From the sequence record PP449093.1: a stretch of DNA of 64,000 nt. One strand, given 5' to 3'. The stretch comes from Escherichia coli phage phiS. Below are positions 2,608 to 57,053 of the stretch, piece by piece. A model generated the notes under the pieces. The model saw only the letters and a program-made list of their open reading frames with translations, had not been told where the DNA came from and did no database searches. Made by a program: the position numbers and the translations under genes. Each line of letters starts with the position of its first letter. Position 1 is the stretch's first letter.

Positions 2608-2636
2608 TTGACGGGGATCGCGAGATCCCCTATACT
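2608..2636 (+). promoter_or_regulatory. Early promoter with stem-loop in the spacer (TTGACG ... TATACT)
   Basis: TTGACG, then the 17-nt spacer ggggatcgcgagatcccc forming a hairpin, then TATACT. Confidence 0.5.
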
Positions 2637-10626: not shown

Positions 10627-10655
10627 TTGACGCGGGGAGAAATCCCCGTTATACT
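10627..10655 (+). promoter_or_regulatory. Early promoter with stem-loop in the spacer (TTGACG ... TATACT)
   Basis: TTGACG, the hairpin cggggagaaatccccg in a 17-nt spacer, then TATACT. Confidence 0.5.
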
Positions 10656-33915: not shown

Positions 33916-33963
33916 TTGACATACAAGGGAGATTCTCTATAATGGGAGTCTCCCTTTTCTTTT
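33916..33963 (+). promoter_or_regulatory. Promoter-stem-loop cassette: TTGACA, TATAAT inside a hairpin loop, then a T-run (terminator-like)
   Basis: cttgacatacaa-gggagattc-tctataatgg-gagtctccc-ttttctttt; the 9-bp stem encloses the -10. Confidence 0.5.
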
Positions 33964-33977
33964 ATGAGGATTTAATA

Positions 33978-34284: not shown

Positions 34285-34313
34285 TTGACACTGGATCGGG
34301 GATATATCATAAT
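34285..34313 (+). promoter_or_regulatory. Early promoter with hairpin spanning the -10 (TTGACA ... CATAAT)
   Basis: ttgaca-ctggatc-ggggatatatcataatgtcccc. Confidence 0.45.
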
Positions 34314-34343
34314 GTCCCCATCAAAAACAAAAGGTTGACTTAT

Positions 34344-39026: not shown

Positions 39027-39389
39027 ATGCTAGGTCATTCTAAAATAGAAGATTGCTCATTCAGAGCAATGAAAGATGATTTTTCAGTCCTGTACGCGTC
39101 TATCCGAGAGTTGTTTGTAGATTTTAAGCAATTCAGAGAATACAAAGGCGTTAAGATGCGGGAGTGGGTATTCTGGCCTTTCTATATCATTACTCTGTTT
39201 TCTATGGTATTTTGTTTTGTCGGGATCACGATCGCTAGCTTTGTTACTTGCGCTTTCCTGATTATCCGGTGTATCATGTTTGCTTTGATTGCTGCCCCGT
39301 TTATTGTTTCAATCCTTCCGTTAAAATGGCTATTGGATTGGGCTGATAAATCTGATAAAGTAAAGAATGTGATTTGTAAGCGTGTATGA
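39027..39389 (+). CDS. Integral membrane protein (120 aa); possible ac counterpart by position
   Basis: Two or three hydrophobic helices (FYIITLFSMVFCFVGITIASFVTCAFLII, ALIAAPFIVSILPL); directly upstream of gene 52. Confidence 0.5.
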   Translation: MLGHSKIEDCSFRAMKDDFSVLYASIRELFVDFKQFREYKGVKMREWVFWPFYIITLFSMVFCFVGITIASFVTCAFLIIRCIMFALIAAPFIVSILPLKWLLDWADKSDKVKNVICKRV

Positions 39390-39396
39390 GGTGAAG

Positions 39397-40743
39397 ATGA
39401 ATAAATCAGTTACTTACCGTAGCCTTGAAAGCATTGTACATAATGAAGCTAAGGAATATGCGATCTATTCTGCCGAGGAACGCGGGATTCCTCAATTAGT
39501 TGATGGTCTTAAACCAGTGCAACGCTTTGTTATGGAATGTGCTTTGCAAAAGAGTAAAGGCGACCGTAAGAAATTCCGTAAGATGGCAGATATTGGATCT
39601 GGTGTTGCTGAGTTGGGTTATCACCACGGGGAAACTAATGCCGTAGAAGCCGGATCACTCATGGCGAATACATGGAGCAATAATACTCCACTGCTTGATG
39701 GTCAAGGTAACTTCGGATCGCGTTTAGTCCAGAAAGCAGGTGCGGCACGTTATATCTTTGCTCGTGTGCATGAAAACTTCTTTAAAATCTATAAAGATAT
39801 GAATTGCGCACCTAAGCACGAAGATCTGGAACACATCCCGCCAGCGTTCTACTTGCCAGTTGTTCCAATGGTATTGGCTAACGGTATTAGTGGTATTGCT
39901 ACAGGGTATAAAACTGACATTTTACCGCATTCACTGGAAAGCCTTATTGAATGCACAGAGCTAGCACTTGCCGGAAAACTGGATAAAGAACCTAGTGTTC
40001 AATTCCCGAAATTCACGGGTAAAGTTATCCCACGAGATGATCGCGATGGTGTGATTCTTGAGGGTACATATGAACTAAACGGCAAGACTAAACTGACAAT
40101 ATCAGAAGTTCCTTATAAGTTCGACCGTGAAGAATATGTAGCGGTACTGGATGCACTGGAAGAAAAAGATCTGATTGTCTCATATAATGACCGTTGCTCT
40201 AAGGACGGATTCAGATTTGAAGTAACACTGAAACGCGATTATTTCAAAAGCGAAGATGAATCCGCTCGACATGAGCAGATCATGAAGGATTTTAAACTAA
40301 CGCAGTTAGTAGCACAGAATATCGTAGTGGTTAATGAACGTGGTTTAGTCGAAGTATTCGAGAAAGCGAGCGATCTGATCCGTCGATTCGTCGAAATCCG
40401 CTTAGGCTATATAGACAAACGCATTGAATTGATGCAAGCGGAAACGCTAGAAGCATACAATTATGCAATGGCTAAAGCCGAATTTATCGACCGCGTAATT
40501 AAGGGCGAAATCGAGCTACAGGGCAAGAAAAAGGCCGAGGTAATGCAATCCATCAATGGACATGAAAAACTGCGTCCATACGCCGATAAGCTAGTTTCTA
40601 TGCCATTGTATAGCGTTACTCAAGAAGAGTATGAACGACTGGTCAAAGATGCCGATAAACATCATAGTGAATATGAGTATTGGACAAAGACGACCGCAAT
40701 GAAGGAATATAAGAAAGATCTTAAAGAACTTAAGAAGGGTTGA
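39397..40743 (+). CDS. 52: DNA topoisomerase II medium subunit gp52 (GyrA-like)
   Basis: DGLKPVQRF, GYHHGE, LLDGQGNFGSR and RYIFARV match T4 gp52 as I recall it. Confidence 0.9.
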   Translation: MNKSVTYRSLESIVHNEAKEYAIYSAEERGIPQLVDGLKPVQRFVMECALQKSKGDRKKFRKMADIGSGVAELGYHHGETNAVEAGSLMANTWSNNTPLLDGQGNFGSRLVQKAGAARYIFARVHENFFKIYKDMNCAPKHEDLEHIPPAFYLPVVPMVLANGISGIATGYKTDILPHSLESLIECTELALAGKLDKEPSVQFPKFTGKVIPRDDRDGVILEGTYELNGKTKLTISEVPYKFDREEYVAVLDALEEKDLIVSYNDRCSKDGFRFEVTLKRDYFKSEDESARHEQIMKDFKLTQLVAQNIVVVNERGLVEVFEKASDLIRRFVEIRLGYIDKRIELMQAETLEAYNYAMAKAEFIDRVIKGEIELQGKKKAEVMQSINGHEKLRPYADKLVSMPLYSVTQEEYERLVKDADKHHSEYEYWTKTTAMKEYKKDLKELKKG

Positions 40744-40949: not shown

Positions 40950-41337
40950 ACGACGCATTACTTCAAGTAATTTAGGCAATCATCATGCATGGATGGTTGA
41001 TCCAGACAAAAATCCTTATAAACTGTACGACACAACAATTCAACCGTGGGATACTGGCGTATGGAAAACATCACCGACAACAGCACCTATTATGACCGAT
41101 CCGAAACCGATTAGCCCGATGGCGGAACCAGTACAGATTAAGCCGTTACCATACCAGATAACGACGAATAGCATCGCCAACAAGCAAGAAAATGATATTG
41201 ATATGATCTACGAGATGATCAAACTTTGGCGTGATGTTTATCTTGGTGTTCTTTGCAACACAGATAAAAGTGCACATGCGGCAGCGGTACTTGCATCTCA
41301 TGCGGTAGACGAAGCCAAAAAGAAATTTAGTAAGTAA
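40942..41337 (+). CDS. Hypothetical protein (131 aa)
   Basis: ORF from the track. Confidence 0.5.
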   Translation: MTERRITSSNLGNHHAWMVDPDKNPYKLYDTTIQPWDTGVWKTSPTTAPIMTDPKPISPMAEPVQIKPLPYQITTNSIANKQENDIDMIYEMIKLWRDVYLGVLCNTDKSAHAAAVLASHAVDEAKKKFSK

Positions 41338-41346
41338 CTGATTATT

Positions 41347-41378
41347 AAGCCGATCCTTGTGGTCGGCTTTTTTATTTT
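41347..41378 (+). terminator. Intrinsic terminator
   Basis: aagccgatcc-ttgt-ggtcggctt followed by TTTTATTTT. Confidence 0.65.
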
Positions 41379-41387
41379 AAAAAGTTG

Positions 41388-41416
41388 TTGACTTACAGAA
41401 TCCAACATCGCATAAT
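41388..41416 (+). promoter_or_regulatory. Early promoter (TTGACT, 17 nt, CATAAT) with conserved CCCATACCAAACAAAAGGAGAATCA leader
   Basis: Leader shared with promoters at about 27639, 41921 and 42234. Confidence 0.5.
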
Positions 41417-41447
41417 ACACCCATACCAAACAAAAGGAGAATCAAAG

Positions 41448-41720
41448 ATGTGCAACGAAAACAGCAAAGTGTTGGCAATTGCAGATAAAGTAGGTTACTG
41501 GAAATGCTGGGATGATATGGAGAAATTAGGCGGTCGCTATCTCGATAACTTAGAGTTGCATTATTGCCAAGCGCGTAATGCAGAAGTTGCGGGAGTAGCA
41601 ATCGAAGATATTCCGTCTAAAGTCTTCGGATTCTCTAAAGATGATACTCTAGAGTATGTTTTTAAGGCTGTAATGGATCAAGCATGGGAAGACGCAGAGA
41701 CACGCGCTCTTGATTGGTGA
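41448..41720 (+). CDS. Hypothetical protein (90 aa)
   Basis: ATG after AAGGAGAA. Confidence 0.5.
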   Translation: MCNENSKVLAIADKVGYWKCWDDMEKLGGRYLDNLELHYCQARNAEVAGVAIEDIPSKVFGFSKDDTLEYVFKAVMDQAWEDAETRALDW

Positions 41721-41724
41721 TAAT

Positions 41725-41943
41725 ATGAACTGGTATAAAATTTGGAAAAATCAGGTGGAGGCTTATCTAGGGTATAAGCCCACCGACGAAGAATTACTCG
41801 ATGCAATGTACGAAGACGGACTAAATCCGAAAGTAGCCGCGCAAGAATACGCGGAATGGATGAAGGTCGAAAAGAACCTAGAGGCAACGAAAAATTTTCA
41901 CGAAAATAATAAAAAAGCAGTTGACGCCAAAGGTCATCGGTAG
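41725..41943 (+). CDS. Hypothetical protein (72 aa)
   Basis: ORF from the track with adjusted start. Confidence 0.45.
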   Translation: MNWYKIWKNQVEAYLGYKPTDEELLDAMYEDGLNPKVAAQEYAEWMKVEKNLEATKNFHENNKKAVDAKGHR

Positions 41944-41949
41944 TATTAT
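41921..41949 (+). promoter_or_regulatory. Early promoter (TTGACG, 17 nt, TATTAT) with CCCATACCGAAACGAA leader
   Basis: Lies inside the 3' end of the upstream ORF. Confidence 0.4.
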
Positions 41950-41983
41950 ACCCCCATACCGAAACGAAGTGGAGGAAATAAAA

Positions 41984-42226
41984 ATGGTTAAAGTTAATGT
42001 TATCGAAGTTGCACTGTACGACGCTGGAATCTTCCTGAATGAAAAAGAAGCTGCCGTCCTCGACGAACTGAAAACTGTTTTTGTTCCTGTAGTAGAAGAC
42101 GTAGAAGCAATCAAAATCGCTTCTCGTAAACTGTCCCGTGAAGCATTTGACATGATTGATCCGGTTTTCAAAGTTATGCACGAATGCGCGGTTATGATGA
42201 CCGAAGAAGAAGCGAAAAATTTCTAA
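41984..42226 (+). CDS. Hypothetical acidic protein (80 aa)
   Basis: ATG after GTGGAGGAA. Confidence 0.5.
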   Translation: MVKVNVIEVALYDAGIFLNEKEAAVLDELKTVFVPVVEDVEAIKIASRKLSREAFDMIDPVFKVMHECAVMMTEEEAKNF

Positions 42227-42233
42227 AAACCAG

Positions 42234-42262
42234 TTGACGTAAAGAAACGGGAGTAGTAAGAT
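42234..42262 (+). promoter_or_regulatory. Early promoter (TTGACG ... TAAGAT) containing hairpin gggagtagtaagatactccc
   Basis: The same 20-nt palindromic element recurs in the promoter at 42512. Confidence 0.4.
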
Positions 42263-42291
42263 ACTCCCATACCAAACGAAAGGAGAATCAC

Positions 42292-42504
42292 ATGAAATCT
42301 ATCGAGCAAGTAGTAACAGAGTTTATGAGCTACGAAGGAAACCGCATCTTTGGACGTTCTCAAGTTCGCGAGATCGTGGAAGAGGTCTCTGGAGAGTTTG
42401 CGGAATCTGGTCACGTTACCACGCAAGAACGTAAAGAAGAAGCAGTAAACCAGATCATGGCTATGCAGAAAATGCGTATTAATGCACGAGCGGGTAAAAA
42501 TTAA
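42292..42504 (+). CDS. Hypothetical protein (70 aa)
   Basis: ATG after AAGGAGAA. Confidence 0.5.
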   Translation: MKSIEQVVTEFMSYEGNRIFGRSQVREIVEEVSGEFAESGHVTTQERKEEAVNQIMAMQKMRINARAGKN

Positions 42505-42511
42505 AAAGTAG

Positions 42512-42540
42512 TTGACACCGGATTAAGGGAGTAGTAAGAT
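42512..42540 (+). promoter_or_regulatory. Early promoter (TTGACA ... TAAGAT) containing hairpin gggagtagtaagatactccc
   Basis: Duplicate of the element at 42249. Confidence 0.4.
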
Positions 42541-42573
42541 ACTCCCATCAAGAAAAACATTGAGGAATATATT

Positions 42574-43332
42574 ATGAAAAACATTATCGCTGCTATCGTT
42601 CTTTCTGCTACTGCTTTCGGTGCTAACGCTGCGTCCTTTGATTGCGCTAAAGCGACTACCAAATCAGAGAAGTTTATTTGTGCTAACGAGTCTATCTCCG
42701 CGCTGGATTCGAAACTTCATGAAGTATATGTTAAGGCTGTTAAGATTGATCCGTCTCTTAAACAAGAGCAACGCAACTGGAATAAAACTGTTCGTGATAC
42801 AATGATCAATATCGGGCAGATTCAGCCACTGGAGGCTGTATACAACGCTCAAATCCAAAACTTGATGAATGCATTACCTAAAGAAGAAACCGCGTCAGAA
42901 AGCGATTCAGAGACTTCTGTGAAGGTTGACGAAGAACAACCGAAACAGGAAGAAAAAGTGGTGGAAGAACCGAAGGTCGAAACTTTTACCTATCAATGCA
43001 CCGTTCGTTATGAGTGGAGTATGAAAGATGGAATTTCCACAAAAATTAAAGAAGCGCCACTGTATGCCAAATATGGAAATCAACCAGGAGATCTTAAAGT
43101 AACCATTAAAAATGGGAAGATGGTTGATTTTGTATACATTGATGAATACAACGTACACAAAGCAAACGTACAAGAAACCGTTATGACTAAAGGCGGGTTT
43201 TATAAGAATGTTGGCAAGAAAGATCTATATGAATACTCCGTTTTCGAACCAAACGACGGAACTATTCGATTTGAAAAACGTCATCCTACATTCGGTGGCG
43301 CAATTGATGTAGATCAATACGTTTGCAAGTAA
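42574..43332 (+). CDS. Secreted protein with DUF1311/LprI-like (lysozyme-inhibitor-type) N-terminal domain (252 aa)
   Basis: Signal peptide MKNIIAAIVLSATAFGANA, then SFDCAKATTKSEKFICANESISALDSKLHEVY, the DUF1311 signature as I recall it. Acidic linker and a C-terminal domain follow. Confidence 0.65.
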   Translation: MKNIIAAIVLSATAFGANAASFDCAKATTKSEKFICANESISALDSKLHEVYVKAVKIDPSLKQEQRNWNKTVRDTMINIGQIQPLEAVYNAQIQNLMNALPKEETASESDSETSVKVDEEQPKQEEKVVEEPKVETFTYQCTVRYEWSMKDGISTKIKEAPLYAKYGNQPGDLKVTIKNGKMVDFVYIDEYNVHKANVQETVMTKGGFYKNVGKKDLYEYSVFEPNDGTIRFEKRHPTFGGAIDVDQYVCK

Positions 43333-43343
43333 GAGGTTAAATT

Positions 43344-43631
43344 ATGCAATTCAATAACATGAAGATTACAAAAGATTGGTGGAAGGCGATGCAAGATACT
43401 CCAGAAACCAAATTAAGCGAGACAACAACCACGATACAAGTTGATTACGAAGATCCGAAAGACATATACAGGGAAATTTTAATCAGAGAGCTTATAAAAG
43501 CTGGTAATTATCAAACACCGGACGGTCTTATTGACATGATGGTTAAAGGTCTGTATAGTGGTAAAAATCCAGATGTTTTACCGTGGTACGAGGGATATTT
43601 TAAAACATATCGTGACCACAACCGAAAATAA
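43344..43631 (+). CDS. Hypothetical protein (95 aa)
   Basis: ORF from the track. Confidence 0.5.
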   Translation: MQFNNMKITKDWWKAMQDTPETKLSETTTTIQVDYEDPKDIYREILIRELIKAGNYQTPDGLIDMMVKGLYSGKNPDVLPWYEGYFKTYRDHNRK

Positions 43632-43654
43632 GTTGTTGACGTGAGGATTATATT

Positions 43655-43846
43655 ATGGTAATTTTTAATCGCGATGGTATCATAGTTCGGCAACATCCAT
43701 TCCTTGAATACTATCAGGTTGAACAATGGGGATATGGGGATTGCTCGCGATCATACGGTCAAAGCTGGGGATACCGTACAGTTTTTGAATCAACTAATAT
43801 TGACAAAGTACGACAGAAAGTTTTAGAACTTCTTAACGATAAGTGA
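43655..43846 (+). CDS. Hypothetical protein (63 aa)
   Basis: Preceded by TTGACG and a GAGGA RBS. Confidence 0.45.
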   Translation: MVIFNRDGIIVRQHPFLEYYQVEQWGYGDCSRSYGQSWGYRTVFESTNIDKVRQKVLELLNDK

Positions 43847-43856
43847 GGATTACATC

Positions 43857-44225
43857 ATGGAAATTCAAAACAATTACGAAAAATGTGTTATTATCAATGA
43901 TTTGCAACGTCAATTGCATCATTACGAAACCGATTATAAAACATCAACAAAAACCGGAAAGTTGAAAGTGTGGGAAGTCTGGTATAACCGAAACTATCTG
44001 GGAAGCATCCACAAACTTGATCGCAGTGATGTTTATACAATGCATGTGGGCGCTTGTGGTGAATCGGATGTAGCATTTAATTTCATGGAAGCACTTGCAT
44101 TCTATGTAGAATATCTGGTAGACTATATCGAGTTGGAAGAGGAAGTGGTAGAATTGCTTCCTCCACCGGAAGAAGCGCCGGAAGCAACGATCCTGAAAGC
44201 ATTAAAGAAAATCTTTGTTAAGTGA
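43857..44225 (+). CDS. Hypothetical protein (122 aa)
   Basis: ORF from the track; acidic C-terminus. Confidence 0.5.
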   Translation: MEIQNNYEKCVIINDLQRQLHHYETDYKTSTKTGKLKVWEVWYNRNYLGSIHKLDRSDVYTMHVGACGESDVAFNFMEALAFYVEYLVDYIELEEEVVELLPPPEEAPEATILKALKKIFVK

Positions 44226-45596: not shown

Positions 45597-45630
45597 AGAA
45601 GGGGAGGCCGAAAGGCTTCCCCTTTAAGTT
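45597..45630. terminator. Bidirectional terminator between convergent early (+) and late (-) transcription units
   Basis: aagggga-ggccgaaaggc-ttcccctt hairpin with flanking A/T runs. Confidence 0.55.
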
Positions 45631-46285
45631 ATCTAATCCTTCCGAGGATTCTGGCAGATTGATTGCAAAGAGTATCTAAATTCTCAATGTCAATATCCGG
45701 TTTATTCTTCCATGCAATGGAGATACTACCAGAATAGACATTATCGAGATTGAATATAGGACAAGAATACATAACCCCTATATCGATACTCTCTAATTTC
45801 TTTTCTCTTGATGGAATATACTGGAAATCTTTATCGGTAAAATAGGATTTACCTAAAAGATGTCTACGATATTCTTCACTCGTTTTATTGATAGGGAATC
45901 CGCCTAAATTTTTTTCATCGATTGTATGCGGTAGCTTTCCTTCATATGCCACCAAATCAACAAAATAGTTTAGGTTTTTCGGACGAAAACTAAAAACAGC
46001 AGAAAAATCGGCATCAGCCGACACATGAACTATCTGTAACTGCTCCTGTGCTGCATTATCAAAATTGCGGTCTTTCTCTACCTGGAGAACGTGAGCATAA
46101 GTCTCATAACGAGTCTCTTTATAAAGCGCAAATAACTCGTTTTTACTATAAACGACAAATGCTAATATAGACAACACGACGGCAGCAAAAACACGAAGTA
46201 CGAGCAACTCCGTGCTTTTAGTTGTGAAAATAGCGCGCAGGACATTTGAGATAGCAAAGTCTTTCCCTTTTTCAGAAACTTGCAT
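45629..46285 (-). CDS. t: Holin T
   Basis: 218 aa; LQIVHVSADADFSAVFSFRPKNLNYFVDLVAYEGKLP and CNQSARILGR match T4 holin T as I recall it. Confidence 0.9.
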   Translation of the reverse strand: MQVSEKGKDFAISNVLRAIFTTKSTELLVLRVFAAVVLSILAFVVYSKNELFALYKETRYETYAHVLQVEKDRNFDNAAQEQLQIVHVSADADFSAVFSFRPKNLNYFVDLVAYEGKLPHTIDEKNLGGFPINKTSEEYRRHLLGKSYFTDKDFQYIPSREKKLESIDIGVMYSCPIFNLDNVYSGSISIAWKNKPDIDIENLDTLCNQSARILGRIR

Positions 46286-51934: not shown

Positions 51935-51942
51935 TATTTATA
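51935..51942 (-). promoter_or_regulatory. T4-type late promoter TATAAATA upstream of gene 36
   Basis: Minus-strand TATAAATA about 35 nt upstream of the gene 36 start. Confidence 0.5.
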
Positions 51943-57045: not shown

Positions 57046-57053
57046 TATTTATA
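57046..57053 (-). promoter_or_regulatory. T4-type late promoter TATAAATA upstream of gene 34
   Basis: Minus-strand TATAAATA about 30 nt upstream of the gene 34 ATG. Confidence 0.5.

Follow-up and report, generated by a model that had tools for sequence, protein, structure and literature searches.

Two identical hairpins over the -10 sequences of adjacent early promoters belong to the published PeSL family in a Krischvirus genome

Two adjacent promoters of Escherichia coli phage phiS (record PP449093.1) contain the same hairpin-forming 20-mer. The DNA that we analysed, referred to here as the window, was 64,000 nucleotides long. An earlier note on this DNA had stated that identical 20-mers overlapped the -10 sequence TAAGAT in both promoters, and we confirmed this statement: the sequence GGGAGTAGTAAGATACTCCC was present exactly twice in the 64-kb window (42249-42268 and 42527-42546, both on the + strand), in each case in a consensus-type promoter. 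The note was also right about the two promoters, but its end coordinate of 42543 fell 3 nt short of the actual end at 42546, and the spacing that it gave as about 275 bp was 278 nt from copy to copy. No further site with three or fewer mismatches was found in the 64-kb window, and 100 shuffled sequences yielded no match to the 20-mer. The perfect repeat around both hairpins was 22 nt long (GGGAGTAGTAAGATACTCCCAT; repeat family D7).

The 20-mer was predicted to fold into a 7-bp stem with a 6-nt loop (GGGAGTA-GTAAGA-TACTCCC), and its folding energy was -10.4 kcal/mol for the RNA (z = -3.7) and -4.6 kcal/mol for the DNA. In both copies, the hairpin was located 9 nt downstream of the -35 box, and the -10 hexamer TAAGAT took up loop positions 2 to 6 and ran one base into the 3' arm. 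Hairpins in this register, which we refer to as the -10-loop subtype, covered about -20 to -1. The early promoter consensus of phage RB49 has C residues at -3 to -1, in agreement with mapped 5' ends (Nolan et al. 2006, PMC1524935). Three orthologous sites in the GEC-3S record (HE978309) were annotated as promoter, -35, and -10 features. The array containing the two hairpins was positioned between the gp52 topoisomerase gene and a holin/tail-fibre module, and the flanking ORFs had no known function. The 70-aa ORFan between the two hairpins was the homologue of ORF264 of RB49 and phi1 (PHROG 14966, function not known), and the 252-aa product of the ORF that followed copy 2 matched the Pfam family LprI (PF07007, E = 3e-5).

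The notion in the earlier note that the identity of the two copies was a local peculiarity did not survive comparison with related genomes. The phage was a member of the RB49-like genus Krischvirus; the region 41000-44000 was 90-99% identical to Krischvirus records (58 matches listed) and up to 98.7% identical to phage 011D4. The 20-mer was found in 4-9 places per genome among the 58 Krischvirus matches listed, and one IMG/VR contig carried six copies. Exact copies of the 20-mer numbered two in the 64-kb window and five in 011D4. The 011D4 genome had six copies of the stems, all on the early strand and all 9 nt downstream of a -35 box, as well as three copies of a covarying variant (GGGGGTA/TACCCCC), one of which had a 2-nt insertion. 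The 20-mers of the window are identical because a promoter module that is dispersed as paralogues, with about 4-9 copies in each Krischvirus genome, has been conserved, and not because the two sites have a special relationship. Representative genomes from 185,579 species of bacteria and archaea contained no exact match to the 20-mer, and the repeat was therefore not derived from the host in the manner of REP elements. An Rfam scan of 41000-44000 returned two chance-level matches (E of about 0.8-0.9, far below the gathering score), neither of which was located at the hairpins. We also considered concerted evolution of the two copies and rejected it, because identical loops were found in 4 of 11 phages (by a hand count in which the window and 011D4 were not independent) relative to about 2.3 expected, and this difference was not significant.

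The two hairpins are members of an already published family. Promoter-early stem-loops (PeSLs) were described in RB49 and phi1 by Arbiol, Comeau, Kutateladze, Adamia, and Krisch (2010, Genome Biol Evol 2:140, PMC2839356) as elements composed of an AT-rich region, a σ70 promoter, and a hairpin of the form G(n)-loop-C(n). In most cases, this hairpin is located in the promoter spacer or overlaps the -10. PeSLs drive the early genes of RB49-like T4-type coliphages and are sites of gene-cassette shuffling (PMC2839356). There are about 51-52 PeSLs in each RB49 or phi1 genome, with stems formed by a G run and a C run (PMC2839356; PMC4122927), and five placements of the stem-loop with respect to the promoter are distinguished, with -10 overlap among the two most common (PMC2839356, Fig. 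2). Both sites in the window had the parts of such an element: a near-consensus σ70 promoter, an AT-rich stretch containing the upstream stop codon, a stem-loop with the G run 5' and the C run 3' that overlapped the -10, and a Shine-Dalgarno (SD) sequence and start codon on the 3' side, in a hyperplastic region (Table 1). In addition, many repeats were found on the early strand, as examined in 011D4, where 43 promoter-SD-ORF sites were on the early strand compared to 1 on the other strand and 30 of the 43 had a perfect hairpin of at least 6 bp. ORFan indels with junctions inside the element were found between close relatives. The PeSLs of RB49 and phi1 shared with those in the window the phage genus, the architecture, the hyperplastic location, the -10-overlap subclass, and element-bounded indels. 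The orthologous sites of RB49, 5' of ORF264 and ORF262, had the same hairpin as the window; the two loops differed from each other in reference RB49 (GTATTA and GTAAGA), whereas they were identical in the window.

Table 1. Positions of the promoters, hairpins, and neighbouring features in the window
Feature	Position	Strand	Sequence, parts, or source
Spacer-type PeSL	2608-2636	+	GGGGATC-gcga-GATCCCC at 2613-2630, fills the spacer
Spacer-type PeSL	10627-10655	+	CGGGGA-gaaa-TCCCCG at 10633-10648
PeSL	33916-33964	+	AAGGGAGA-16 nt-TCTCCCTT at 33925-33956, spans the -10; followed by TTCTTTT, a terminator-like tail
PeSL	34285-34319	+	TTGACA at 34285; -10 CATAAT (34308-34313) in the loop of GGGGA-12 nt-TCCCC (34298-34319)
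Canonical terminator	41347-41369	+	AAGCCGATC..GGTCGGCTTTTTT; PeSL directly after
PeSL after that terminator	41375-41444	+	74% identical to copy 1 over 70 nt; family D1
Degenerate paralogous PeSL	41903-41983	+	TTGACG 41921-41926, TATTAT 41944-41949; families D2/D3
AT-rich upstream region, PeSL copy 1	42215-42233	+	gaaaaatttcTAAaaaccag; sequence, repeat families D2/D3 (AAAAACCAGTTGAC)
Stop codon TAA of upstream 80-aa ORF (41984-42226)	42224-42226	+	inside AT-rich region of copy 1; ORF list
Copy 1 promoter	42234-42262	+	TTGACG-17-TAAGAT
Copy 1 -35 hexamer	42234-42239	+	TTGACG; promoter scan
Copy 1 stem-loop	42249-42268	+	arms GGGAGTA (42249-42255) and TACTCCC (42262-42268); loop GTAAGA (42256-42261)
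Copy 1 -10 hexamer	42257-42262	+	TAAGAT
Copy 1 predicted transcription start	42269	+	A directly after CCC; inferred position
SD and 70-aa ORFan between the hairpins	42282-42504	+	GGAG 42282-42285; ATG 42292 to stop 42504
AT-rich upstream region, PeSL copy 2	42494-42511	+	gtaaaaatTAAaaagtag; contains ORF264 stop codon 42502-42504
Copy 2 promoter	42512-42540	+	TTGACA-17-TAAGAT
Copy 2 -35 hexamer	42512-42517	+	TTGACA; promoter scan, GEC-3S annotation
Copy 2 stem-loop	42527-42546	+	same 20-mer as copy 1
Copy 2 -10 hexamer	42535-42540	+	TAAGAT
Copy 2 predicted transcription start	42547	+	A
SD and 252-aa ORF	42562-43332	+	GAGG 42562-42565; ATG 42574, ORF 42574-43332; homologue of RB49 ORF262

Because PeSLs were published in 2010 and 2014, the finding is an ordinary one for this phage group, and its significance is small: it identifies again the cassettes behind modular gene shuffling in T4-type phages. 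What the analysis added, modestly, was that the PeSL indel pattern held across 58 newer Krischvirus genomes at one locus, with junctions in the AT-rich region and the leader, and that the -10-loop subtype was a tight paralogous family with one compensatory variant.

The indel pattern was visible in pairwise alignments around the two hairpins. A 225-nt cassette, consisting of a spacer-hairpin PeSL and the 156-nt ORF263, was missing from the window and present in RB49, ELT4, Makalu_002, Brandy, SSG23, and FL20. The breakpoint fell in a TTAAAAA common to the aligned sequences, immediately upstream of the copy 2 -35 box and within the AT-rich region. A second cassette of 273-276 nt, an ORF plus a PeSL, was absent from the window at 41420 and present in Makalu_002, Brandy, and SSG23; in this case, the junction was in the conserved leader of the PeSL. 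The distance from hairpin to hairpin fell into three size classes in 29 records, and the phi1-specific ORFan263.1 (named in PMC2839356) was located between the two hairpins. Thus, whole promoter-ORF cassettes distinguish the relatives from the window, and the cassette junctions are inside PeSLs, as expected under the published shuffling model. The suggestion in the earlier note that the palindrome could be a recombination site was supported to the extent that it matched the published PeSL model and that cassette junctions were found inside these PeSLs. However, the deletion of ORF264 that recombination between the two 22-mers would produce was seen in none of the 58 Krischvirus matches listed for a synthetic junction query. 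All full-length matches to this query were in two pieces with at least 275 nt extra between them, and the span in the record was 618-932 nt compared to 343 nt for the query.

We consider the best explanation overall, with a probability of about 0.8, to be that both sites are PeSLs, intergenic cassettes, some 60-80 bp long in general and 78 and 80 nt long at these sites, that combine a promoter, an insulator, and a shuffling patch. The cassette would be read in the order upstream stop codon in the AT-rich stretch, -35, 17-nt spacer, -10, hairpin, leader, SD, and next start codon. The host σ70 RNA polymerase would start early transcription at the A just 3' of the hairpin, and the cassette's own mRNA would therefore lack the hairpin. 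Read-through transcripts from upstream would carry it about 22 nt past the upstream stop codon, where it may attenuate or terminate read-through, or at least form a protective 3' hairpin, and so insulate the cassettes from one another. The backing for this step was a lacZ assay of one spacer-type PeSL hairpin only (PMC2839356), and the step is weaker for the -10-loop subtype because this subtype had no U tract. Finally, phage homologous recombination would use short patches of identity (the AT-rich region plus the -35, the 22-nt hairpin plus the -10, and the leader), and whole promoter-ORF cassettes would be gained, lost, or swapped at these patches. This last step was backed by the comparative evidence at this locus and by mini-circles at other PeSLs, which were sequenced and had crossovers inside the PeSLs (Arbiol et al., PMC2839356). 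A cleavage site for RegB (GGAG) was considered separately; this GGAG was in the stem, and the promoter's own transcript would lack it.

The published assays were carried out on spacer-type PeSLs (211/210, 206/205, and 193/192), whereas the window pair was of the -10-loop subtype. As a promoter, PeSL206/205 was measured at about 13,000 Miller units, and the stem-loop of PeSL211/210 gave termination comparable to that of rrnB T1 in a lacZ assay (PMC2839356). Both were spacer-type elements of the GGGGATC family, and the 211/210 stem was more GC-rich than that of the window pair. Like the PeSL hairpin, an intrinsic (Rho-independent) terminator is a G/C-clamped stem-loop in the 3' untranslated region of the upstream gene, but it needs a U-rich tract directly after the stem, and the window pair had the hairpin without the tract. 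The sense tails (ATACCAAACG and ATCAAGAAAA) were A/C-rich with one T in 10 nt, the first 10 nt past the stem on the + strand contained 0-3 T in all nine copies, and a terminator scan listed none on the + strand at either hairpin. Because there was no U tract on the + strand, intrinsic termination was not predicted by the canonical rule. The terminator role proposed in the earlier note agreed with the published model for the PeSL class (PMC2839356), and the label "terminator," as applied to the -10-loop subtype by analogy, is best read as an extrapolation.

An alternative that we considered possible but unlikely was that the hairpin is an RNA 3'-end or processing element, which caps read-through or processed upstream mRNAs, blocks 3' exonucleases, and sets half-life. 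The position of a stable RNA stem (-10.4 kcal/mol) about 22 nt past the upstream stop codon is consistent with this idea, and the lack of a U tract after the stem is more in line with a stabiliser than with an intrinsic terminator. The change of a G-C pair to G-U in the phi1 copy would likewise be tolerated in RNA. However, the lacZ drop reported by Arbiol et al. was strong with a spacer-type stem-loop that also had no clear U tract, and this looked more like termination.

The PeSL reading was also examined in light of stem conservation. Pairwise identity among eight paralogues in 011D4 averaged 94% for the arms, 92% for the loop, and 96% for the -35 box, compared to 45% for the spacer and 31-52% for the leader. 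The sole arm variant within 011D4 was compensatory (GGGAGTA/TACTCCC and GGGGGTA/TACCCCC, an A-T to G-C change). Relatives provided 30 distinct variants, of which 24 retained the stem; within the subtype, 98.5% of positions counted were paired, and a change on both sides was seen at a single pair, in two of the 29 distinct sequences. Because covariation within the subtype was thin, the argument depended on the comparison across subtypes. A few orthologues had a pair-breaking change (TACTACC), and together with the thin covariation this meant that arm conservation could also reflect sequence-specific recognition or promoter constraints. Since the -10-loop subtype had no U tract, arms conserved as tightly as the -35, and an A-rich 5' flank, it may not be a sense terminator; that it is instead a distinct device (a supercoil-dependent DNA hairpin that tunes these promoters by exposing or hiding the -10, a specific target of a protein or recombinase, or an antisense terminator) seemed to us quite unlikely.

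The same conservation figures bear on the idea that the palindrome, or the extruded hairpin, is the DNA target of a phage recombination or nuclease protein that mobilises cassettes site-specifically. This idea was raised by Arbiol et al. for the GGGG...CCCC motif (PMC2839356), and it would account for arms that were conserved like the -35 hexamer while the flanks drifted and for one mapped mini-circle crossover that fell in a hairpin loop. However, the junctions at this locus were outside the hairpin, in the AT-rich region and the leader, PeSL subtypes differed in stem sequence, no dedicated recombinase was identified in these genomes (PMC2839356), and the DNA hairpin was worth only -4.6 kcal/mol. 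We regarded such a target as very unlikely.

The earlier note had also proposed a repressor operator, in which case a dimeric repressor or activator would bind the duplex inverted repeat over the -10 and switch the early promoters. This proposal was not supported, although an inverted repeat over the -10 is in the classic operator position and the arm sequence was nearly invariant among 6-9 paralogues per genome. Promoters in the same genome carried unrelated stems (GGGGATC, GGGGAG, CGGGGA, AAACGGGG, and others) whose loops ranged from 3 to 17 nt and which were located anywhere from 5' of the -35 box to 3' of the -10 box, so no single dimer could read all of them. One half-site at a fixed spacing was not shared across the early promoters, although within the subtype the arms were nearly invariant. 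In addition, the arm variant changed both halves together, and on the coding strand the G run invariably preceded the C run, an asymmetry that a symmetric duplex site does not need. An operator role was extremely unlikely in our judgment.

Equally unlikely was a role on the - strand, with the hairpin as an intrinsic terminator of antisense (late, convergent) transcripts that run into the early ORFan array. The - strand tails were T-rich in all copies (GTTTCTTTAC, GTTTCATCAT, and ATTTCTTATT; 4-7 T in 10 nt), the scan marked copy 1 as terminator-like on that strand, and late promoters at 51942 and 57053 pointed towards the array. This idea was weakened because the convergent junction already had a strong, bidirectional-looking terminator (45600-45626). 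In addition, copy 2 had a weak tail (TTAATCCGGT), spacer-type PeSLs had no such strand asymmetry, and the T-rich tail may be nothing more than the A-rich spacer of the promoter on the opposite strand. That the hairpin has no function of its own, being a chance inverted repeat in an ancestral promoter that was copied around and kept identical by descent or gene conversion, fits the shared register and flanking motifs of all copies, as expected of paralogues, and the mosaic of -10 variants across paralogues and phages, which suggests conversion, but it was likewise extremely unlikely given the several unrelated hairpin families independently enriched at early promoters (p of about 2e-5), the compensatory arm variant, and arms that stayed at 94% identity beside a spacer and leader that had diverged to 31-52%.

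The PeSL reading places the two sites beside several known systems. The PeSLs of T4/PST and KVP40/nt-1 (Comeau, Arbiol, and Krisch 2014, PMC4122927) had the same composite logic, hyperplastic enrichment, and cassette differences, but their promoters (TTTACW..TAYWAT and TTGYVH..TAWWAT) and stems (AGNA-loop-TCNT and A3-4G3-loop-C3T3-4) were different (PMC4122927), and they are analogues, not sequence relatives. Morons of lambdoid phages (Hendrix et al. 2000) and integron cassettes are likewise small, self-contained gene units that are gained and lost. A moron, however, has its promoter and terminator on either side of the gene, and these signals are not considered to bring about mobility, whereas the promoter and hairpin of a PeSL are fused; integrons use an integrase and attC sites, whereas in a PeSL the repeat itself is the recombination homology, with no integrase known. 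The early promoters of phage N4 resemble PeSLs in having a short G/C-stem hairpin at the promoter, with recognition elements exposed in the loop. N4 promoters are read by the virion RNA polymerase with host SSB. In contrast, RB49-type early promoters are near-consensus σ70 duplex promoters, and the position of the hairpin varies among PeSLs.

Other promoters in the window carried hairpins as well. The earlier note had listed the promoters at 2608, 10627, 33916, and 34285 as also carrying hairpins, and a stem was found at each of them (Table 1). The stem family of the 2608 hairpin was shared with the PeSLs assayed by Arbiol et al., and a T tract was present at other PeSLs of the window (33916, 15419, and 27071). 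A perfect hairpin of at least 6 bp was found at 9 of 21 promoter-SD-ORF sites on the + strand, compared to 13% of random 89-nt windows (p = 7e-4), and 6 of the 21 sites had a stem of 7 bp or more that included four or more GC pairs, compared to 2.8% of random windows (p = 2e-5). In the case of the hairpin-less promoters at 1463, 41388, and 61129 (the three examined), a canonical terminator with a hairpin and T tract was located just 5' of the -35. This arrangement suggests that the embedded hairpins are a compact form of the same terminator-promoter logic as the upstream terminators of the hairpin-less promoters. The PeSL at 41375-41444 had TTGACT at 41388 and CATAAT at 41411-41416, and in the degenerate PeSL at 41903-41983 the right half (gtagTATTATaccccCATACCGAAACGAA) matched copy 1 and the 5' arm had been lost.

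The two adjacent promoters contained exactly the same 20-mer, GGGAGTAGTAAGATACTCCC, at 42249-42268 and 42527-42546 on the + strand, as the earlier note had claimed, and the full exact repeat was 22 nt (GGGAGTAGTAAGATACTCCCAT). The earlier end of the pair, 42543, was 3 bases short and the true spacing was 278 nt. No third site for GGGAGTAGTAAGATACTCCC was found in the 64-kb window at up to three mismatches, and 100 dinucleotide-preserving shuffles produced no matches. The paired-hairpin observation was correct and non-random. The 20-mer folded into a 7-bp stem with a 6-nt loop (RNA, -10.4 kcal/mol, z = -3.7; DNA, -4.6 kcal/mol). Both promoters were of the consensus type, with 9 nt between the -35 hexamer and the start of the hairpin, and in both copies the -10 hexamer consisted of loop positions 2 to 6 plus the first base of the 3' arm.

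These hairpins belong to an already published class, the promoter-early stem-loops (PeSLs), and were found in the phage group in which the class was defined. Nucleotides 41000-44000 were 90-99% identical to the 58 phage records listed, all Krischvirus (RB49-like T4-type coliphages), and the top match was vB_EcoM_011D4 (011D4; 98.7%). RB49 and phi1 carry about 51-52 PeSLs per genome, with parts that include an AT-rich stretch with the upstream stop codon and sigma70-like -35 and -10 boxes (Arbiol et al. 2010, PMC2839356). The concept was widened to T4/PST and KVP40/nt-1, and RB49 stems were summarised as 'GN-loop-CN' (Comeau et al. 2014, PMC4122927). The GenBank record of GEC-3S has promoter, -35 and -10 features annotated at the three orthologous sites of the locus.

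Copies of the 20-mer made up a family spread through the genome rather than a pair confined to this locus. A 31-nt probe matched 4-9 places per genome among the best 58 Krischvirus records listed. The complete 011D4 genome had six GGGAGTA...TACTCCC stems, each of which lay on the early strand in the -35 plus 9 nt register; five were the exact 20-mer and one had the loop GTAAAA. Six copies were likewise present in an IMG/VR contig (150 kb, n = 1). The window held only two members because the remaining ones fell outside it. The 20-mer was absent from bacterial and archaeal genomes representing 185,579 species.

The locus itself was an array of small + strand ORFs (an early ORFan array) that ended at a convergent junction with holin/tail-fibre late genes. 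In RB49/phi1 numbering, ORF264 lay between the two hairpins and ORF262 past the second. The ORF262 homologue (42574-43332, 252 aa) had a signal-peptide-like N terminus and a match to Pfam LprI (lysozyme inhibitor; PF07007, E = 3e-5) at residues 24-76. The T4 late-promoter consensus, TATAAATA, had just two matches in the window, and about 5.7 were expected by chance.

Coordinates of genes, promoters and embedded hairpins in the window
Feature	Position	Strand	Remarks
gp52 topoisomerase subunit	39382-40743		upstream of ORF array
Promoter of copy 1	42234-42262	+	TTGACG-17-TAAGAT
Promoter of copy 2	42512-42540	+	TTGACA-17-TAAGAT
Holin gene	45629-46285	-	
TATAAATA match	51935-51942	-	upstream of late genes
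TATAAATA match	57046-57053	-	upstream of late genes
Promoter 2608 hairpin	2613-2630		spacer filled
Promoter 10627 hairpin	10633-10648		within spacer
Promoter 33916 hairpin	33925-33956		across -10 box, then T tract
Promoter 34285 hairpin	34298-34319		-10 box inside loop

When the window was compared with ten relatives, the indels at the ORF264 locus were bounded by PeSLs. RB49, ELT4, Makalu_002, Brandy, SSG23 and FL20 carried a 225-nt cassette (a spacer-type PeSL, with the hairpin between -35 and -10, plus the 156-nt ORF263) between ORF264 and copy 2, and the window, 011D4, MIZ4 and GEC-3S did not. Skers and phi1 had this unit too, behind an additional ORF263.1. The junction lay in a common TTAAAAA directly 5' of the copy 2 -35 box (window ~42495-42511). 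A 273-276-nt cassette (a 207-nt ORF plus a third PeSL with the same hairpin as copies 1 and 2) was present in Makalu_002, Brandy and SSG23 and missing from the window; its junction fell in the conserved leader CCCATACCAAACAAAAGGAGA (window ~41420). FL20 lacked the 243-nt ORF and had a hybrid PeSL. Downstream of ORF264 lay a 300-nt ORF in kaaroe and a 261-nt ORF in Skers and phi1 (ORFan263.1 of phi1, named phi1-specific in PMC2839356).

The hairpin-to-hairpin distance in 29 records with both flanks was 278, about 503 or about 540-590 nt, and the deletion expected from recombination between the identical 22-mers was not in any of the 58 records searched. PeSLs also border the indels between RB49 and phi1, and sequenced mini-circles had their crossovers within PeSLs (PMC2839356). 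Arbiol et al. themselves speculated that the hairpin may be the target of a specific recombinase (PMC2839356), but the junctions at this locus fell outside the hairpin, and we regard this reading as improbable.

The 300-nt ORF that replaced ORF263 in kaaroe had an annotated repeat_region (2337-2409 of the kaaroe locus sequence), which aligned as a near-tandem duplication (..CATATGGTACTTA..). The window had a 173-nt deletion at 41868-41900 (junction ~41881) relative to kaaroe, ELT4, Skers, MIZ4, Brandy, SSG23 and Makalu_002. This deletion, whose junction was outside any PeSL, joined a 171-nt ORF to the final codons of the next 201-225-nt ORF, yielding the window's 77-aa ORF (41710-41943); a 219-nt ORF of equivalent size is annotated there in 011D4.

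Hairpins played no part in the definition of candidate sites, which required TTGAC-N16-18-TAnnnT and then an SD, an ATG and an ORF no shorter than 30 codons. The window had 21 such sites on the early (+) strand and none on the other; 011D4 had 43 and one, respectively, and 30 of the 43 had a perfect hairpin with 6 bp or more. Hairpins of this kind occurred at 9/21 window sites versus 13% of random 89-nt windows (p = 7e-4), and stems with 7 bp or more, four or more of them GC, at 6/21 versus 2.8% (p = 2e-5). G/C-clamped hairpins were indeed found at the four further promoters listed previously (2608, 10627, 33916 and 34285). The spacer-type family comprised GGGGATC-N3-4-GATCCCC, GGGGAG-N5-6-CTCCCC and CGGGGA-gaaa-TCCCCG; the -10-loop type, with the -10 hexamer in the loop, comprised GGGAGTA-N6-TACTCCC and GGGGGTA-N6-TACCCCC; and in the downstream type a T tract accompanied a hairpin located past the -10 box. 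On the coding strand, the G run formed the 5' arm in nearly all cases. Promoters 1463, 41388 and 61129 had no embedded hairpin and carried a canonical hairpin and T-tract terminator just 5' of the -35 box. At 43627-43657, an AT-rich stretch and TTGACG were joined straight to an SD and ATG (aataagttgTTGACGtgaggattatattATG), so close that a -10 box could not fit after the -35 box; the arrangement may represent what is left of a truncated PeSL.

Among eight -10-loop paralogues of 011D4, mean pairwise identity was 96% in the -35 hexamer, 94% in the arms, 92% in the loop, 45% in the spacer, 42% in the AT-rich region and 31-52% in the leader, and the sole arm difference was a compensatory A-T to G-C exchange. 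This variant and the fact that several independent hairpin families were enriched made it very unlikely that the hairpin had merely hitch-hiked with a copied promoter. A duplex operator, the repressor-binding option of the earlier note, was disfavoured to a similar degree by the diverse stems, loop lengths and positions among promoters and by the strand asymmetry of the hairpin.

In 29 distinct sequences taken from relatives, 98.5% of cells paired, and a two-sided change affected one pair in 2/29 sequences. Pair-breaking TACTACC occurred in two orthologues (copy 1 of the OZ035808 RB49 assembly and GEC-3S), a TGGAGTA arm in one sequence (another paralogue, in reference RB49), and TACTCTC, a G-C to G-U change, in phi1 copy 2. 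Orthologue variation was mostly in the loop, that is, the -10 hexamer (TAAGAT, TAACAT, TAATAT, TAAAAT or TATTAT), and covariation evidence within the -10-loop subtype was therefore thin. The stronger argument for a structure was the unrelated self-complementary sequences at equivalent places in other PeSLs.

Family membership, enrichment and constraint on the arms were established in the present analysis; work on other PeSLs provided promoter activity (about 13,000 Miller units for PeSL206/205), mini-circles and termination by one spacer-type stem-loop, that of PeSL211/210, at a level comparable to rrnB T1 (PMC2839356). Transcription would start at the A right after CCC, at 42269 and 42547, which is consistent with the C at -3 to -1 in the RB49 early consensus, itself said to agree with mapped 5' ends (Nolan et al. 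2006, PMC1524935). With a start right 3' of the hairpin, the cassette's own mRNA would lack it. The hairpin would form only in upstream read-through RNA, about 22 nt past the upstream stop codon, where it could attenuate or terminate transcription or protect the 3' end. The PeSL211/210 stem-loop assayed by Arbiol et al. (AGGGGATCACGTATCCCCT, native 3' sequence ATACTACAC; PMC2839356) had a different and more GC-rich stem than the window pair, and the 10 nt 3' of the stem on the + strand contained 0-3 T in 9/9 copies of the -10-loop subtype. Because few T followed the stem and the assayed stem was different, the terminator label for copies 1 and 2, which are of this U-tract-less subtype, is an extrapolation.

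T-rich tails on the - strand would suit an antisense terminator. The 9-nt spacer 5' of -10-loop hairpins was A-rich, often ..GAAAC (011D4; window 42240-42248 and 42518-42526), so that 4-7 of the 10 nt 3' of the - strand hairpin were T; this asymmetry between strands was seen in -10-loop PeSLs and not in spacer-type PeSLs. However, where the early ORFan array and the holin gene converge there was already a strong hairpin at 45600-45626 (AAGGGGAGGCC-gaaa-GGCTTCCCCTT, with an A tract 5' and T-rich sequence 3') that looks like a candidate bidirectional terminator, and an antisense role is hard to credit.

For the read-through RNA, one other pairing was noted. The 5' arm of the window hairpin (GGGAG; 42249-42268) was SD-like and the 3' arm (ACTCC) anti-SD-like. 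In the 011D4 paralogue near 82503, on the early strand, the 3' arm can instead form an 8-bp pairing with the SD that follows it (GATACTCC...GGAGTATC), a complementarity that hints at an alternative pairing in read-through RNA.
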